Origin: Candidatus Thorarchaeota archaeon
GTDB taxonomy: Archaea > Asgardarchaeota > Thorarchaeia > Thorarchaeales > Thorarchaeaceae
Length of the DNA: 20,856 nt
Assembly: GCA_011364905.1 (NCBI GenBank)
Contig: RDNZ01000011.1
Span: forward strand, 50,465-71,320
Direction of reading: 5' to 3'
The notes under the pieces: model-generated
The model's database searches: none
Told to the model about the DNA's origin: nothing
The model's input: the letters and a program-made list of their open reading frames with translations, nothing else
In this document: positions 7,393 to 15,628 of the stretch, one piece after another
Numbering within the stretch: position 1 is the first letter of the stretch
How the letters are laid out: each line of letters opens with the position of its first letter
Program-made: the position numbers and the translations under genes

Positions 7393-8418
7393 TCAGAGCC
7401 CATTTTTTGCAGAGTCTTGTGGTTTTGCGTCGATGAGTATGGGAGTCTTTCTGATTATTTCGGGCTCTGTTAGTAAGCCAGCTTCAATCAGTATCTCTTC
7501 TAGTCTTCGCCTAAGAGGGCTGATATTGCCAATAACTCTAGGATAAGACACAAAATCCTCAATCGACTTTATGAATGGAGATTCTTTAAGATCCTGTATG
7601 ATAGGCATCCCTTTGCCGGGACGGTCAATGAGCAGCCCCACATCAATGATTGGCTGATTGGTCGTTATGGTTGCCCACCAGAATGCTTCAGGATATTTCT
7701 CATACAACGCCATTATGATGTCTGGACCAGTTGTCTGAGCATCGTCGTAACAGATCTTCAACCTATATTCCATATCTCCCAAAGCAAATGCATCGAAACC
7801 AACAACGAAGTGGATGCCACCCCCTTCTTCTAACTCGCGTAGGATTTTCCGCACCCGTCGATGAGTAAAACCTGTTTGTTGTGCAATCTGGGAAACGGGC
7901 AGTCGAGCATCTTGATACAAACACCTGAGCACTTGTAGCTGATGCTGAGTGAAAACAACTTTCTTTCCCCTCGTATTCATAATAGAGTTGGGAGGCATAT
8001 TAGGAGAGAGATAAACAACAGGTCTCATTTCTACGTCAGTCACTCCATTAAGCCCTTCAAGATACATCTTGAGACCCAATGTTTCAGAGGCACCTGACAC
8101 CCTAGCCCAATACTCATAGCGTCTGTCACTAGTGCGATAGCAACAATTTACTATAGGCCATCTAGCAATAATTTGTTTGATGAATTCCATCGCTTTCTCA
8201 GTACCATCTGTAACGATTACACCTAGTACATCTTCTGCGCCGAGCATTTCCATGCTCACCAAAACTCCAAAGCCCACAATCACCTTCTGTTTGTGAAGTC
8301 TATTGATTCGATGCTTGACTGTGTTAGGTGAAATGCTGAGTTTTCGTGCGAGTACCTGGTACGACATCCTTGCATTGCCACATAATTCACAGATCAAAGC
8401 CCAATCTAATGGATCCAA
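7393..8418 (-). CDS. Double-HTH Lrp/AsnC-like transcriptional regulator, paralog A
   Basis: DPLDWALICELCGNARMSYQVLARKLSISPNTVKHRINRL and a second HTH DARLPVSQIAQQTGFTHRRVRKIL; TTG start with GGTGA 5 nt upstream. Confidence 0.88.
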   Translation of the reverse strand: MDPLDWALICELCGNARMSYQVLARKLSISPNTVKHRINRLHKQKVIVGFGVLVSMEMLGAEDVLGVIVTDGTEKAMEFIKQIIARWPIVNCCYRTSDRRYEYWARVSGASETLGLKMYLEGLNGVTDVEMRPVVYLSPNMPPNSIMNTRGKKVVFTQHQLQVLRCLYQDARLPVSQIAQQTGFTHRRVRKILRELEEGGGIHFVVGFDAFALGDMEYRLKICYDDAQTTGPDIIMALYEKYPEAFWWATITTNQPIIDVGLLIDRPGKGMPIIQDLKESPFIKSIEDFVSYPRVIGNISPLRRRLEEILIEAGLLTEPEIIRKTPILIDAKPQDSAKNGL

Positions 8419-8654: not shown

Positions 8655-9608
8655 TCAAAGTCCAGCTTCTTTCAGTAGGGCCCATAGATGAGTATTGAGT
8701 CTGTTTGTACCATATATAACCCTAGGATAAGTTACAAAGTCTTCCACCGACCGGATATAAGCGGTTGCCTTGATCTCAGCTGCGATTGGTGGACCTTTGC
8801 CCGGACTGCCAATAATCAGACCGACATCAACGATTGGTTCATTGGTAGTAATAGTTGACCACATGAATACTTCTGGATGCTTCTTATATAACGACACAGC
8901 AACATCTTGACCAGTTACTTGAGCATCGTCATAGCGAATCCTCAACCTGTACTCCAAATCACCCAATTCAAATAGATTGTAGATAACATAGGTATGAATA
9001 CCACCACCTTCCTGTAAATCGTGAAGAATCCTTCTGACTCGTCTGGGAGTGAATCCTGTTTCTTGAGAGATCTGAGAAACTGGCTTTCTAGAGTCCAAAA
9101 TCAAAGTCTTTAGTACATGTAGCTGGTCACGAGAAAAAATGACCTTCTTCCCCCTGGTATTTCCAACGTAGCTGGGTGGTTTATTGGGATAAAAGAGTTC
9201 AATGGGTTGCATCTGTACATTCGTCGCGCAATCAAGTCCTGTCAGAAAGCGTCTCAGTCCTAGTGTTTCACTCGCCCCTTTCACCATGGCCCAGTACTCA
9301 TAGCGCCTATCAGCGTTGCGACAGATATCACAAACCATGGGCTGGTCGGCTATCATTTTCATAAGCTCTATCACATCCTCAGACCCATCGGTAGTGACAA
9401 AACCAGATACCATTTCAGCACCAAGCGTTTCAAAGCTCACACAAATGCCAAACTTCGTAATCACTCCTTTCTCGCGAAGTCTGTTTAAACGGTTCTTGAC
9501 GGTGTTTGTTGAAATATTGAACTTCTTCGCGAGTGCTTTGTAAGGCATCCTTACATTGCCGCATAATTCACATATCAAGGCCCAGTCTAATGGATCCAAA
9601 CTACTCAT
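8655..9608 (-). CDS. Double-HTH Lrp/AsnC-like transcriptional regulator, paralog B
   Basis: Same architecture as 7393-8418, with shared blocks DPLDWALICELCGN, DRRYEYWA, GASETLGL, NTRGKKV, EGGGIH, TITTN.PI.DVGL, EDFV.YPRVI. Confidence 0.88.
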   Translation of the reverse strand: MSSLDPLDWALICELCGNVRMPYKALAKKFNISTNTVKNRLNRLREKGVITKFGICVSFETLGAEMVSGFVTTDGSEDVIELMKMIADQPMVCDICRNADRRYEYWAMVKGASETLGLRRFLTGLDCATNVQMQPIELFYPNKPPSYVGNTRGKKVIFSRDQLHVLKTLILDSRKPVSQISQETGFTPRRVRRILHDLQEGGGIHTYVIYNLFELGDLEYRLRIRYDDAQVTGQDVAVSLYKKHPEVFMWSTITTNEPIVDVGLIIGSPGKGPPIAAEIKATAYIRSVEDFVTYPRVIYGTNRLNTHLWALLKEAGL

Positions 9609-11722: not shown

Positions 11723-13465
11723 TTATTTGTCAGCACACGCCAAATGCGATTGTAGCTCTTGGATAACTTTCTGTTTCAACGTATCGATGTTTCCCCCATG
11801 ACTCTCAATCACAACATCCTGAAGAACTCCATTCAGCCGGTCATAGCTCAACGTTATCATAGCAGTGTCGATACCATCAGGTTCCGAGAAAATGTAGTGT
11901 GTTCGAACAGACTCTCGATCTTCCTGCACCACCTCATCAATCGATGTGATGACTTTCGTGGAGAGATACTGCTCGATATCTTCTGGATTACATTTCTGAT
12001 TCAGTTCATGTTGGATAACATGGTCCTTCTCGACTCTGCCGCCCATCCAATCCATCGCCTTCTTCAGACCTACTACAATTGCGACCCATAGGATGACCGA
12101 GGAAACAAAGAATAGCAGCGGGTAATCACTGGCTAGTGAAGCGTAAGGTGTGATGTATTCTCCAGTAATTGCCAATATGATGTCAAAGGCAATGGTACCT
12201 GACAGAACGAGTTGTATGACATTCAATACGTCCCCGGTTCGTTCATTGGCTTTGATGACCTCACTCGTACTTCGGGTGTTATCACGTAATGCACCATATA
12301 CGCGTCTCATTTGTTGCTCGATTTGAGTTGAAAGAAGTGTTTGAAGACCTTCAACTTCATTCTCAATACTCTTCAGCACTAGATCGATGTCACTTATCCT
12401 CTCGATAATAGAAGTGAATCTACGATCTATCTCAAGCATCTTTCGAAGCTTTTGATCAACAGATGCTGCTGCTTGTTTCCAACGTTCTGCGATTAGCGGA
12501 AATCCTCGATGCAAATAACCTTCCGTTGATGTAAGAATTGTATAGTTTGCCGTGGCTTCTGTTAAGATGTTCTGTGCCTTAGTAATAGCTGAGTAGTCAC
12601 CTTCTGTGGTTTTTTCGATTAGGTCTACAACCTGAGTAAGCTCATCCTCCAATAGTGACATCCTGTTAAATAAGCCATCAACAAAAATCTCTGCGCTTCT
12701 CAACAGAGAGTAGAAGGTGATCAAGGTTTCATAATCCTTCCAATTCGGAGAAACAATCAACATGCCACCATCCCCCATGAATACTCTGGCTTTCTTTGTA
12801 GAAATGAAATGGACCAGCTGCATGTTATCAAGGACTTGCTCCAATTCATTCTGATATTCCTCTCCATCCATATAGAATGACATATCATCTTTCTGAGGCG
12901 TGATTGACGAAGCAAGAAGCCCCAGGAATTTGTATCTGCTATTTGGCGTACCTTTGAAGATACAGTCCAATATTGCGCGTTGATGATGTGTCAGAAGTGT
13001 GTCCATCAGGAGGGAGGAGTCATTCATGAGATCTGTGACAACTCTGGCAATGTGATCAATCGAGGCAGTTGGTTCATCAGACAAGCCATCCTCCCCGATT
13101 CTGTTCAGCTCACAGCCATAAATGACATGTCCTTCGTGACTCAAGAACATCCCGACAATCTCTTCTTGCTCTACCACATCATCAGGATCCTGCATGCTTG
13201 CTTCGCATGCGATATATTCAGACCCTCTCGAATCAATCACACGTACAGAGTTGCATCTCTTCTCGGAGGTGAAAGTTGTGCTTTCGGGCCACTCGTCCAT
13301 TAGCATAGTGACGAACTCACCATGCAGTGTTCGCTTTGACATGAGCTTCTGTGCAATGGCCTCGAGTGTATTCCTATCTGTTGGAAGAAACTCACTGAGA
13401 ATCAGCTTGACTCCACCGAGTTTTATTGATTCAAGAAGTTTATCCTTAATGAGTTCTTCAACCAT
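11723..13465 (-). CDS. Uncharacterised membrane protein with CorA/ZntB-like topology (large soluble domain, coiled-coil stalk, two TM helices, extra C-terminal domain), lacking GMN
   Basis: 580 aa; stalk ISDIDLVLKSIENEVEGLQTLLSTQIEQQMRRV; TM1 VLNVIQLVLSGTIAFDIILAITGEY; TM2 YPLLFFVSSVILWVAIVVGL; start overlaps the upstream stop (TAATG). Confidence 0.8.
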   Translation of the reverse strand: MVEELIKDKLLESIKLGGVKLILSEFLPTDRNTLEAIAQKLMSKRTLHGEFVTMLMDEWPESTTFTSEKRCNSVRVIDSRGSEYIACEASMQDPDDVVEQEEIVGMFLSHEGHVIYGCELNRIGEDGLSDEPTASIDHIARVVTDLMNDSSLLMDTLLTHHQRAILDCIFKGTPNSRYKFLGLLASSITPQKDDMSFYMDGEEYQNELEQVLDNMQLVHFISTKKARVFMGDGGMLIVSPNWKDYETLITFYSLLRSAEIFVDGLFNRMSLLEDELTQVVDLIEKTTEGDYSAITKAQNILTEATANYTILTSTEGYLHRGFPLIAERWKQAAASVDQKLRKMLEIDRRFTSIIERISDIDLVLKSIENEVEGLQTLLSTQIEQQMRRVYGALRDNTRSTSEVIKANERTGDVLNVIQLVLSGTIAFDIILAITGEYITPYASLASDYPLLFFVSSVILWVAIVVGLKKAMDWMGGRVEKDHVIQHELNQKCNPEDIEQYLSTKVITSIDEVVQEDRESVRTHYIFSEPDGIDTAMITLSYDRLNGVLQDVVIESHGGNIDTLKQKVIQELQSHLACADK

Positions 13466-14061
13466 TATTCTTCCTCCCGGTCTTTATTGGAGTATTTTTC
13501 CTTGTCCGCTCCAAACCATCCAAAATTGAACGATGGCAGGTATGCTTTAGTTGCGTAAGGGATGTCTTCGATATCACCAATGAGCACTTTCTCATTGAAG
13601 TCGCATGGATCGCATCTAAAGGAAAAGTCTGAACCATTCATGGCTACTGTGTACAAACCACCACACGAATGATAAATCAGTGATGAAATCTCTTGCCTAA
13701 TTGATTCAGTTGCCTCGTTGACTTTTTGCTGCCCCAATTCTGTAAGTCGATACGCTGTAACAAACCCATATTGAGATGTGCTGACTCTTAGAATTGATAT
13801 CATCCTTAGGTTCAAGAGATCTTCGAGGTCATCCTTCCCTTCTCTACTTATATTCAACCACTCGCGCGTTCCATCAAGCATTGCCACACTCCAAGGCGCG
13901 TAATCGTAATCTCGAAAGACTTCTTTTACAATTCCCTGATATATAATGGCCATCAACGGAAGTTCCTTGACCCAAATCGGATTTTCTTCATGTCCCTCTT
14001 GTGTATATGCTGCGATGACCATTAGTAGCCTCATCATATCGTCTGTGAATTCCTCATCCAT
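13465..14061 (-). CDS. Uncharacterised winged-helix plus zinc-ribbon protein
   Basis: 198 aa; DDLEDLLNLRMI...AYRLTELGQQKV (wHTH helix 3 and wing); HSC-x16-CDPC; GGGAG SD. Confidence 0.8.
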   Translation of the reverse strand: MDEEFTDDMMRLLMVIAAYTQEGHEENPIWVKELPLMAIIYQGIVKEVFRDYDYAPWSVAMLDGTREWLNISREGKDDLEDLLNLRMISILRVSTSQYGFVTAYRLTELGQQKVNEATESIRQEISSLIYHSCGGLYTVAMNGSDFSFRCDPCDFNEKVLIGDIEDIPYATKAYLPSFNFGWFGADKEKYSNKDREEE

Positions 14062-14363
14062 TGACTCCCGACTCCTGCGTCGAATTCAGTAGGGTTTCCT
14101 TTTTGCAAAGATACCTAATACATTTTCGGGGATTGCATCTCACGATTCAAAATGCAATTGAAAGCCCATTGAAGCAAAATCTAGACTTTTTCGTGCCAAA
14201 GAAGTAAATTTTTGATGTAGTTCTAACGCTTCTACTTCTCTGAACATTGTCAGAAACTGGTTGGCTCATCTGGTATGTCTTTCAAGCATTTTCCAAAGAC
14301 TTGATATAATTAGGACTATAAAATAGATTAAAAGATGTATGAATTCCGGGGAATTTGCACAAA

Positions 14364-14792
14364 ATGAAAGAGCCCTCGATAGGATGTTATCTCATAGTTG
14401 GCATTGTTCTCGTGGTCATATTCAATTCAATCCCTGTAAGCCAGATAGTTGAAGGCACTAACTCTACAGAATATACATCCAGTGACCAAAATCACATTGA
14501 AGTCGGTTTTGGCGGAACAAGAGTCACGTGGGTCACTGTGATATGCAACCGAACCTCGGAGATACGATTCATGTACCAAGACGGTGTATGGACTTCGACA
14601 AGCAATACTCTTGTGGCTTCATTCGAATCGACTCTTGCTAGCTACAGTTTTGAAGCTGAACATTCAGTCTATATAATTGAAGTAACTTCCAGTGGACCAT
14701 TTCTGGTAAGTGTGACTTACACATATCAGATCGAGATTAAAACCAGCTATTTTGGAGCTTTTCTCTACTCGCTTGGGATATACAGAGTGTGA
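14364..14792 (+). CDS. Hypothetical membrane-anchored protein (N-terminal TM, beta-sandwich-like middle, hydrophobic C-terminus)
   Basis: ORF fills the gap between neighbours; IGCYLIVGIVLVVIF TM; Ser/Thr/beta-rich body. Confidence 0.65.
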   Translation: MKEPSIGCYLIVGIVLVVIFNSIPVSQIVEGTNSTEYTSSDQNHIEVGFGGTRVTWVTVICNRTSEIRFMYQDGVWTSTSNTLVASFESTLASYSFEAEHSVYIIEVTSSGPFLVSVTYTYQIEIKTSYFGAFLYSLGIYRV

Positions 14793-14812: not shown

Positions 14813-15628
14813 TTAAGAGAGATTCACGCGAGATGCAACATCAATTCCATCATTTTCAGCAATTCTGAGAAGCATTGGAATGAGCGAAAGATCAATGGAA
14901 ACAAGATACGCCAGCTTCTTTGGTGTATAGACTCTAGCACCAGCAGTGAGTAGTTCCCATAGACGCCTGTAAGAATATTTCAATTTGCGATAATCGTTTC
15001 TTAACATGCTAAATCCATTTGGACTATCAAGTGCATCTTTGATAATCCGTTCAAAGTGGGATGTGTCAATTGCGATACCTTCAGAGATGAAGCTTCCATA
15101 TTGCAGATCATAGATTGTAGGTCTCATGCCAGTGACATAGTCAATCTCATCGAAAGTTATCACAAATGACGCTGGCGTTTCATCTGTGAATAGAGAGTCA
15201 ATCTGGTCCTTCACAACCCTACCAATACTCTTGTTCTTGTGAATGAGATACAAAGAGTTGCCTGCAATGAGTTGAGCAGATATATGGGCGAATGTTTTCA
15301 CCGCTTCCTCTTGCTTGTCGCCGAATGAACTGATAATGGAATTGAGGTCAATTGTGTCTTCCTTAACAGTCTTGGCGGGTTCATCCTCCAGTGTCGAGCT
15401 ATCAGCGACCTGCAGAAGTGAAGGATATTCAACGCCTCGTGCTTTGAGATTCATATCAAGATAAACTAGTATTGCATGTTGAGGCGTTCCGTGAACGGAG
15501 ATGACAGAGATAAGCCCAGTTTTTGCCTTCTCCATATCTTCCTCTGTAATCTCTAGAGGTACATTTTCCTTGCATATGTTGCAGAAAGCGTACACATCAG
15601 ATGGTTCGTTTTCAGCCACGGTGCACAA
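14813..15628 (-). CDS. Hypothetical protein with an N-terminal CxxC..H..H metal-binding domain of a type I associate with Asgard archaea
   Basis: CNIC...VHGTPQHAILVYLDMNLKARGVE; C-terminal HTH-like segment YTPKKLAYLVSIDLSLIPMLL; alternative start GTG 15619. Confidence 0.75.
   Translation of the reverse strand: MCTVAENEPSDVYAFCNICKENVPLEITEEDMEKAKTGLISVISVHGTPQHAILVYLDMNLKARGVEYPSLLQVADSSTLEDEPAKTVKEDTIDLNSIISSFGDKQEEAVKTFAHISAQLIAGNSLYLIHKNKSIGRVVKDQIDSLFTDETPASFVITFDEIDYVTGMRPTIYDLQYGSFISEGIAIDTSHFERIIKDALDSPNGFSMLRNDYRKLKYSYRRLWELLTAGARVYTPKKLAYLVSIDLSLIPMLLRIAENDGIDVASRVNLS

Follow-up and report, generated by a model that had tools for sequence, protein, structure and literature searches.

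Two adjacent genes on the minus strand of a 20,856-nucleotide stretch of DNA from a Candidatus Thorarchaeota archaeon (GenBank assembly GCA_011364905.1, contig RDNZ01000011.1, positions 50,465 to 71,320; hereafter the window) encode a small protein of 198 amino acids, here called A, and a large membrane protein of 580 amino acids, here called B. As judged by homology, both genes are genuine, close homologues of each being present in Thorarchaeota and in other Asgard metagenome-assembled genomes, and they belong to families that are catalogued in Pfam 38.1 without an assigned function. Structure prediction and profile comparison indicate for B a distant kinship with the CorA/Mrs2/ZntB superfamily or, failing that, a close structural resemblance to its members. 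We tentatively interpret the pair as a partner-regulated cation channel of the CorA superfamily with a mouth of the non-GMN type, a reading whose chances we place slightly short of even.

The chief Mg2+ gate, in prokaryotes as in mitochondria, is formed by channels of the CorA/Mrs2 type. The Gly-Met-Asn (GMN) motif at the end of the first transmembrane segment (TM1) is the selectivity filter of CorA and is taken as the defining feature of the family. Set beside these proteins, the B family would be a well-conserved sister family that has no GMN motif, is accompanied by a winged-helix partner and occurs in Asgard and DPANN archaea and as far afield as oomycetes and green algae. If this is true, the known roles of the CorA fold would be widened, and a function could be given to hundreds of protist proteins now annotated as 'hypothetical transmembrane proteins', those of oomycetes included. 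The window's pair is one more split member of this catalogued family.

A coupled gene pair and its fused counterparts

The preliminary description of this DNA, made from the sequence alone, had reported two genes joined by a 1-nt TAATG overlap, and both open reading frames (ORFs) do lie where it placed them, with intact frames throughout; every motif that it cited from A and B was likewise found in the translations at the place given. The final A of the TAA stop codon of gene A is also the A of the ATG start codon of gene B, and a GGAGG sequence stands 7 nt before that ATG (GGGAGGAAGAATAATGGTT; in a longer read of the junction, GGGAGGAAGAATAATGG). By this TAATG overlap the two genes form a translationally coupled pair.

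Pairing is the most constant property of the two families. In a survey of 201 Asgard genomes, B was detected in 30 and A in 28, and in all 28 genomes having A it immediately precedes B in the same orientation; where B stands without A, in two cases, the gene is at a contig end. The two genes overlap or are less than 60 nt apart in each of the 18 loci compared (18/18), and A and B are the only gene families common to these 18 neighbourhoods. The pair is also present in Undinarchaeales, in Lokiarchaeota and on an archaeal contig where it lies beside a SecY ribosomal operon. The co-conservation in other archaea that had been suggested in the preliminary description is thus borne out by these loci and by the 28/28 adjacency. 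A related-loci search with a single protein returned one Thorarchaeota contig only. Two variants of the arrangement were noted: an Asgard genome with two tandem copies of A before one B (G084:C74:108-2827), and a metagenomic contig (L050:671-1840) in which the A-family gene upstream of B encodes 389 amino acids, about twice the usual length.

A HMMER search with B retrieved 365 representatives at E<=0.001, many of which are 750-1200 amino acids long with a B part that begins near residue 210-250. When the B-family proteins retrieved were searched for A, 90 fused polypeptides containing both parts were found, and A is N-terminal to B in every one of them (90/90); the linker of the fused forms corresponds to the low-confidence tail of the A model. 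Named eukaryotic members are those of the ichthyosporean Chromosphaera perkinsii, the green alga Prasinoderma coloniale and the oomycete Globisporangium splendens. The earlier suggestion that fused homologues occur in eukaryotes therefore proved correct, and the check that it had proposed, namely whether both parts fall in the same eukaryotic polypeptide in the same N-to-C order, gave a positive answer. Among the clusters of the ESM Atlas, all-eukaryote clusters carry both families (PF27230 and PF27231) in Oomycota (118 and 92 members) and in Chlorophyta (71 members, 63% of them with a ubiquitin-like tail); in a further cluster of 59 members, for which no taxon is recorded, a SprT-like domain is present in 42%. 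Fused forms are also found in bacteria, where they keep their zinc ligands (Candidatus Wallbacteria PKK90968.1, on an 841-kb contig; Candidatus Riflebacteria MFC1744622.1; bacterium MCK5686855.1). This pattern of split and fused forms predicts a physical A:B complex.

Several homologues of prokaryotic or metagenomic origin (P0037, P0086, P0088, P0096 and P0125) carry the Joint Genome Institute (JGI) name 'WD repeat-containing protein 35'. A 1507-residue protein of Globisporangium splendens (KAF1331198.1, P0202) has genuine WDR35/IFT121 domains at residues 1-766, followed by an A part at 833-1012 and then a B part; this gene model is probably chimeric, and the name is likely to have been transferred from it. 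The identity was rejected on that account.

The earlier claim that the family is undescribed did not hold, since both parts are already Pfam 38.1 families. All 42 homologues of A are tagged PF27231 and all 42 homologues of B are tagged PF27230; these precomputed tags are borne by proteins at 50-98% identity, and proteins at 25-36% identity are tagged alike. A and B are assigned to the families through their homology to tagged members rather than through a score against the profiles themselves: neither protein gave a significant match in local Pfam and NCBIfam scans, the Pfam copy used being older than PF27230 and PF27231. The names of the families, MJ1566_N (PF27230) and MJ1567 (PF27231), refer to two adjacent uncharacterised genes of Methanocaldococcus jannaschii. 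The window's pair differs in no essential respect from these families; in its clade, HxC stands for CxxC as the first zinc-ligand pair.

Predicted architecture of the two proteins

Protein B was modelled as a monomer with AlphaFold2 from a 93-sequence alignment (predicted local distance difference test score, pLDDT, 88.4; predicted template modelling score, pTM, 0.70). Along the chain, the model consists of a mixed alpha/beta region (residues 15-240), two helices (242-287 and 292-335), a third, very long helix (346-435), a short loop, the second transmembrane segment (TM2) and an alpha/beta domain (478-580). By hydropathy analysis, residues 412-435 and 444-471 are the two transmembrane (TM) segments, and about 105 residues remain after them; in the model, TM2 spans 449-476. 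The modelled layout is that of CorA, with a cytosolic domain, a helix that runs from the stalk into TM1, a short outer loop, TM2 and both termini on the cytosolic side. The preliminary description had proposed a CorA/Mrs2/ZntB layout without GMN, and the model and the Foldseek, VIA-align and hhalign comparisons below agree with it.

Searched against the Protein Data Bank (PDB) with Foldseek, the B model gave top matches that were all CorA, with E values of 2.5e-6 to 3e-4 over about 350 aligned columns. In a search independent of Foldseek, the cytosolic domain of Escherichia coli CorA (5n77_A) ranked first of 48,161 chains, as it also did when the Foldseek matches were ranked with VIA-align; aligned to B in this way, it gave a Z score of 11.1 with a root-mean-square deviation (rmsd) of 4.3 Å over 188 residues (model range 12-391), and Z scores of 8.7 and 8.9 were obtained for the ZntB soluble domain and for human MRS2. 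At the sequence level, the B family was compared by hhalign with an alignment of 26 canonical CorA proteins from Asgard genomes, the reversed CorA alignment serving as control. The local comparison gave P 4.4e-5 and a probability of 69% over 307 colinear columns (B 59-453, CorA 15-331) and the global comparison P 1.8e-7, against 0.18 and 0.51, respectively, for the control; sequence identity between the two families is about 10%. A profile search of PDB sequences returned coiled-coil noise only. Two features used to recognise CorA proteins are found in the B model, namely a stalk helix continuous with TM1 and followed by a second TM segment, and a cytosolic alpha/beta and helical domain of the CorA type.

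The reference system for B is the CorA/Mrs2/ZntB superfamily, also called 2-TM-GxN or MIT (PF01544; PDB 5n77, 4i0u, 5n9y and 8ip4). B has in common with it the cytosolic alpha/beta and helical domain, the long stalk-TM1 helix, two C-terminal TM segments with both termini inside, a glycine near the outer end of TM1, and a weak but specific profile similarity along the full length. Unlike these proteins, B has T-G-E-[YW] in the place of GMN, no PF01544 match, about 100 more cytosolic residues, a 100-residue domain after TM2, and an obligatory winged-helix/zinc-ribbon partner or N-terminal fusion. Its cytosolic polar motifs are also far more conserved; in the N-terminal domain these are an EWIPFGxN-like motif (25-32), SxDxxxRxxxDxxxDSS (135-151), QR (162-163) and ENELxQ (205-210). 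The stalk bears the motif STQIEQQMRRV at 379-389. The C-terminal domain, which is alignable in many split and fused homologues, most resembles alpha+beta platforms of a generic kind, among them the beta2-adaptin appendage (Z 9.1-9.5) and a Bet v 1-like fold (Z 8.5).

TM1 is the most conserved membrane segment of the B family. At its outer end, hhalign sets the TGEY stretch against the IYGMNF segment of CorA, and the family consensus there is T-G-E-[YW] (G435 80%, E436 45%, Y/W437 68%). A conserved polar face runs along the helix (Q/E418, G423, D/E428 and G435), with G423 conserved at 90% and A426-F427 also conserved, and the fused clade has in addition a near-invariant D431-R432. Charges kept on one face of TM1 suit a pore or the core of an oligomer better than a simple anchor.

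Protein A was described from its sequence as a winged-helix/zinc-ribbon protein, and the AlphaFold2 model (pLDDT 90.5, from an alignment of 50 sequences) and VIA-align matches agree that it is a winged helix followed by a zinc ribbon. The winged-helix motifs are located at residues 30-45 (WVKELPLMAIIYQGIV), 52-56 (YDYAP), 70-82 (NISREGKDDLEDL) and 103-110 (AYRLTELG), and the zinc-ligand motifs at 131-133 (HSC) and 150-153 (CDPC). The winged helix matches MarR, PadR and VanR proteins with Z scores of 9.8-9.9 and rmsd values of 2.0-2.8 over 74-87 residues. A beta-hairpin insert bears the invariant motifs DYDYAP and NISxEG, in which D53, Y54, P56, N70, S72 and E74 are each conserved at 92% or more; in the IEDxPY motif further downstream, E165 is conserved at 96%, D166 at 92% and Y169 at 100% (50 sequences). 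The first ligand pair of the zinc ribbon is HxC in the window's clade, and CxxC...CxxC is found in most other archaea. Archaeal and bacterial members retain these ligands, which the eukaryote-type clade has lost; in the sequences aligned, this loss is a marker dividing the bacterial from the eukaryote-type fused forms.

In fold, A thus resembles winged-helix proteins of the MarR/PadR type and TFIIE-alpha-like proteins, in which a winged helix is combined with a zinc ribbon. It differs from them in its acidic surface and acidic third helix, in the motif-bearing beta-hairpin insert, in always being tied to a membrane protein and in that its zinc ligands are dispensable in the eukaryote-type clade. 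The isoelectric point (pI) of A is 4.46 (family median 4.78), and its third, 'recognition' helix (73-84) has 5 D/E vs 2 K/R; the basic recognition helix and wing by which DNA-binding proteins of the MarR/PadR type are recognised are absent. Because of the acidic pI and the acidic third helix, A is unlikely to be a DNA-binding regulator. The sole Foldseek match of A below E 1e-3 is PDB 7yk3 chain D, from the DarTG toxin-antitoxin complex of Mycobacterium tuberculosis; the match (E 3.6e-4, 135 columns, TM score 0.47-0.49; VIA-align Z 9.8 over 133 residues; chains B and D compared) covers both the winged helix and the ribbon, and the score was considered too weak for this likeness to be interpreted.

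Table 1. Features of the A-B pair, with positions in the window
Feature	Position	Strand	Basis
Gene A (198 aa), acidic protein of the MJ1567 family (PF27231), predicted winged helix and zinc ribbon	13465..14061	minus	ORF; 42 homologues tagged PF27231; AlphaFold2 model
Gene B, 580 aa, MJ1566_N-family (PF27230) protein, predicted CorA-fold membrane protein	11723..13465	minus	ORF; homologues tagged PF27230; AlphaFold2 model; Foldseek
Coupling junction: GGAGG, 7 nt spacer, TAATG stop/start overlap	13463..13482	minus	Sequence read directly
Intergenic region 5' of A, part of inserted cassette	14062..14354	minus	Limits of similarity to five congeneric genomes
A 1-125, predicted winged-helix domain with inserted beta-hairpin (DYDYAP, NISxEG) and acidic third helix	13687..14061	minus	VIA-align; conservation
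A 131-159, predicted three-stranded zinc ribbon, HxC...CxxC	13585..13671	minus	Model strands 136-142, 145-150 and 155-159
A 164-169, IEDxPY motif	13555..13572	minus	Near-invariant in split and fused forms (50 sequences)
B 1-345, predicted cytosolic alpha/beta and helical-bundle domain with invariant polar motifs	12431..13465	minus	Structural match to 5n77_A; conservation
B 346-435, predicted continuous 90-residue helix, stalk into TM1 (412-435)	12161..12430	minus	DSSP on model; hydropathy
B 434-437, T-G-E-Y at outer end of TM1, where CorA has Y-G-M-N	12155..12166	minus	Motif position; conservation; hhalign
B 444-471, predicted TM2, P449 and W460 conserved, KK/R-rich cytosolic exit	12053..12136	minus	Hydropathy; model; conservation
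B 478-580, predicted extra cytosolic alpha/beta domain	11726..12034	minus	Model pLDDT 88-96

A proposed partner-regulated channel and competing explanations

A and B may well form one machine, composed of a divergent CorA/Mrs2/ZntB member and its obligatory cytosolic partner, although we hold this view tentatively. In such a machine, B subunits, probably five, would form an oligomer like that of CorA around a central pore lined by TM1. In place of the GMN filter there would be the conserved polar side of this helix (Q/E418 and D/E428) and an outer ring of T-G-E-[YW], which would pass or bind cations with a selectivity unlike that for Mg2+/Co2+. A would dock 1:1 on the N-terminal cytosolic domain of B via DYDYAP, NISxEG and IEDxxY, where it may gate the pore or complete a ligand- or metal-sensing site rather than regulate DNA, and the extra C-terminal domain of B would be placed on the cytosolic face beside the membrane. 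In a bolder version, MJ1567 and MJ1566 would together represent a novel class of CorA-fold ion channel with two subunits, having an acidic T-G-E-[YW] ring as filter and a gate worked by a dedicated winged-helix subunit; after a single fusion, the one-chain form would have passed among a few phyla of bacteria and the forebears of several groups of protists. This more extended proposal is conceivable but somewhat doubtful.

Several observations weigh against a CorA-type channel. GMN (or GxN), the selectivity element that defines CorA, is missing from B, and no Asn is conserved in the family. In a Pfam scan PF01544 was absent from B even at E<=1, and the same profile detects the two canonical CorA genes that are located elsewhere in this genome. 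The top-ranking 5n77_A exceeds generic helical bundles, which match residues 260-400 of B alone, by only 0.3 Z (rank 2, Z 10.8), and full-length superpositions give rmsd values of 13-15 Å, B having been modelled as a monomer only. So many invariant polar residues as the B cytosolic domain holds are not usual in CorA, and may point instead to ligand binding or catalysis. The pair was found in none of 19 congeneric genomes (14 of the phylum sample and 5 further), and its patchy occurrence (30/201 Asgard genomes) in a variable slot suits an accessory function over core ion homeostasis. Finally, a literature search gave no paper naming MJ1566 or MJ1567 and no experimental data on any member.

Some of these points would be expected if B were a signal-gated membrane effector, in which case a small-molecule ligand or A would open a CorA-fold pore, and the membrane would be depolarised or permeabilised under stress or infection. 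A precedent is provided by CRISPR type III-associated CorA effectors activated by SAM-AMP (PMC10600005), in which a CorA-fold membrane protein likewise acts outside Mg2+ homeostasis and is presumably gated via its cytosolic domain. The patchy spread is in keeping with such a role, as is the form of the insert, a two-gene cassette complete in itself that stands in a variable slot in place of a different one, and the invariant polar residues of the cytosolic domain are compatible with a ligand pocket. However, neither A and B nor two neighbouring genes have a match in PADLOC-DB 2.0 at E<=1, no relatives were detected in a scan of viral contigs, and the 18 neighbourhoods share no CRISPR or cas genes, no cyclase gene and no other gene for the synthesis of a signal. 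Unlike the CRISPR effectors, the pair includes a winged-helix partner and has eukaryotic members; the family is widespread in protists as a single-copy fused gene, which is unusual for a prokaryotic abortive-infection effector, and the slot shows neither flanking repeats nor mobility genes. We regard this explanation as unlikely.

To a similar degree, it seems improbable that the pair serves in the membrane as a sensor or scaffold that conducts no ions. Its CorA-like body would then be an oligomeric anchor only, holding or releasing A, or recruiting other proteins via A and the C-terminal domain. In favour of this reading are the loss of GMN, the frequent part of winged helices in protein-protein contacts, the resemblance of the C-terminal domain to platforms of the adaptor type, such as the beta2-adaptin appendage, and the ubiquitin-like or SprT-like modules added in some eukaryotic versions. 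Yet the acidic and polar face of TM1, the best conserved membrane segment, is hard to square with a mere anchor, A is not releasable in the fused forms, and, being acidic, it is unlikely to act on DNA. It is barely credible that the adjacency is incidental or that the genes are decaying relics without a joint function. Nothing positive favours this idea, which was weighed only for the absence of the pair from the congeneric genomes searched; it is opposed by the 28/28 adjacency and the constant fusion order, by intact frames and high-confidence folds, and by a strong purifying conservation of motifs from archaea to eukaryotes. A channel regulated by its cytosolic partner remains the reading that we tentatively prefer.

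Evolutionary history and local context

The relationships of split and fused forms were studied in two unrooted trees, one of 149 B domains made with FastTree and a quick one of 65 made with IQ-TREE (LG+C20+F+G4). In both, nearly all fused forms are found on one side of a branch (29 rows; Shimodaira-Hasegawa-like approximate likelihood ratio test, SH-aLRT, 97), and the bacterial fused forms, which retain their cysteines, branch basally among them. All three named eukaryotes fall in one clade of 22 rows (support 100). One additional fusion, P0125, arose separately within an Asgard-type clade, and the window's B lies deep within a split Thorarchaeota clade. The archaea-to-eukaryote fusion history suggested in the preliminary description is not borne out by this topology: there is no clean Asgard-to-eukaryote signature because bacteria also have the fused form. 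From these alignments, a single archaea-to-eukaryote inheritance is possible, and a transfer involving bacteria is equally open.

In this genome, the A-B pair is an accessory cassette in a variable slot and not a housekeeping Mg2+ channel. Similarity to five congeneric genomes ends at about 11600 and restarts at about 14364-14464; the cassette therefore consists of exactly B, A and the upstream spacer. The five congeners share the flanking DUF362 gene and genes for proteins of 145 and 271 amino acids, without B. Their slot, bounded by the DUF362 gene and by that of the 145-aa membrane protein, holds genes for a dodecin, a methyltransferase and an alpha/beta hydrolase; in two of the five, genes for an SCP2 protein and a peptidase of the M24 type are present there as well. 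Neither flanking repeats nor mobility genes were found at the slot. A distribution complementary to that of canonical CorA was considered and rejected: CorA is present in 6/11 sampled pair-bearing genomes vs 34/50 pair-less ones, which gives no signal.

No third gene is conserved with the pair. The upstream gene for a protein of 271 amino acids (14813-15628, minus strand), which has an N-terminal CxxC and no family match, is kept in the genus with or without A and B; its product is found at 70-86% identity in 12 of 20 congeneric genomes regardless of the pair, and it is placed outside the module. On the other side of the pair, two tandem paralogues of 317-341 amino acids (7393-8418 and 8655-9608, minus strand) contain two winged-helix/helix-turn-helix (HTH) modules each, with an AsnC-type HTH at the N-terminus and a second HTH near residue 160-200.

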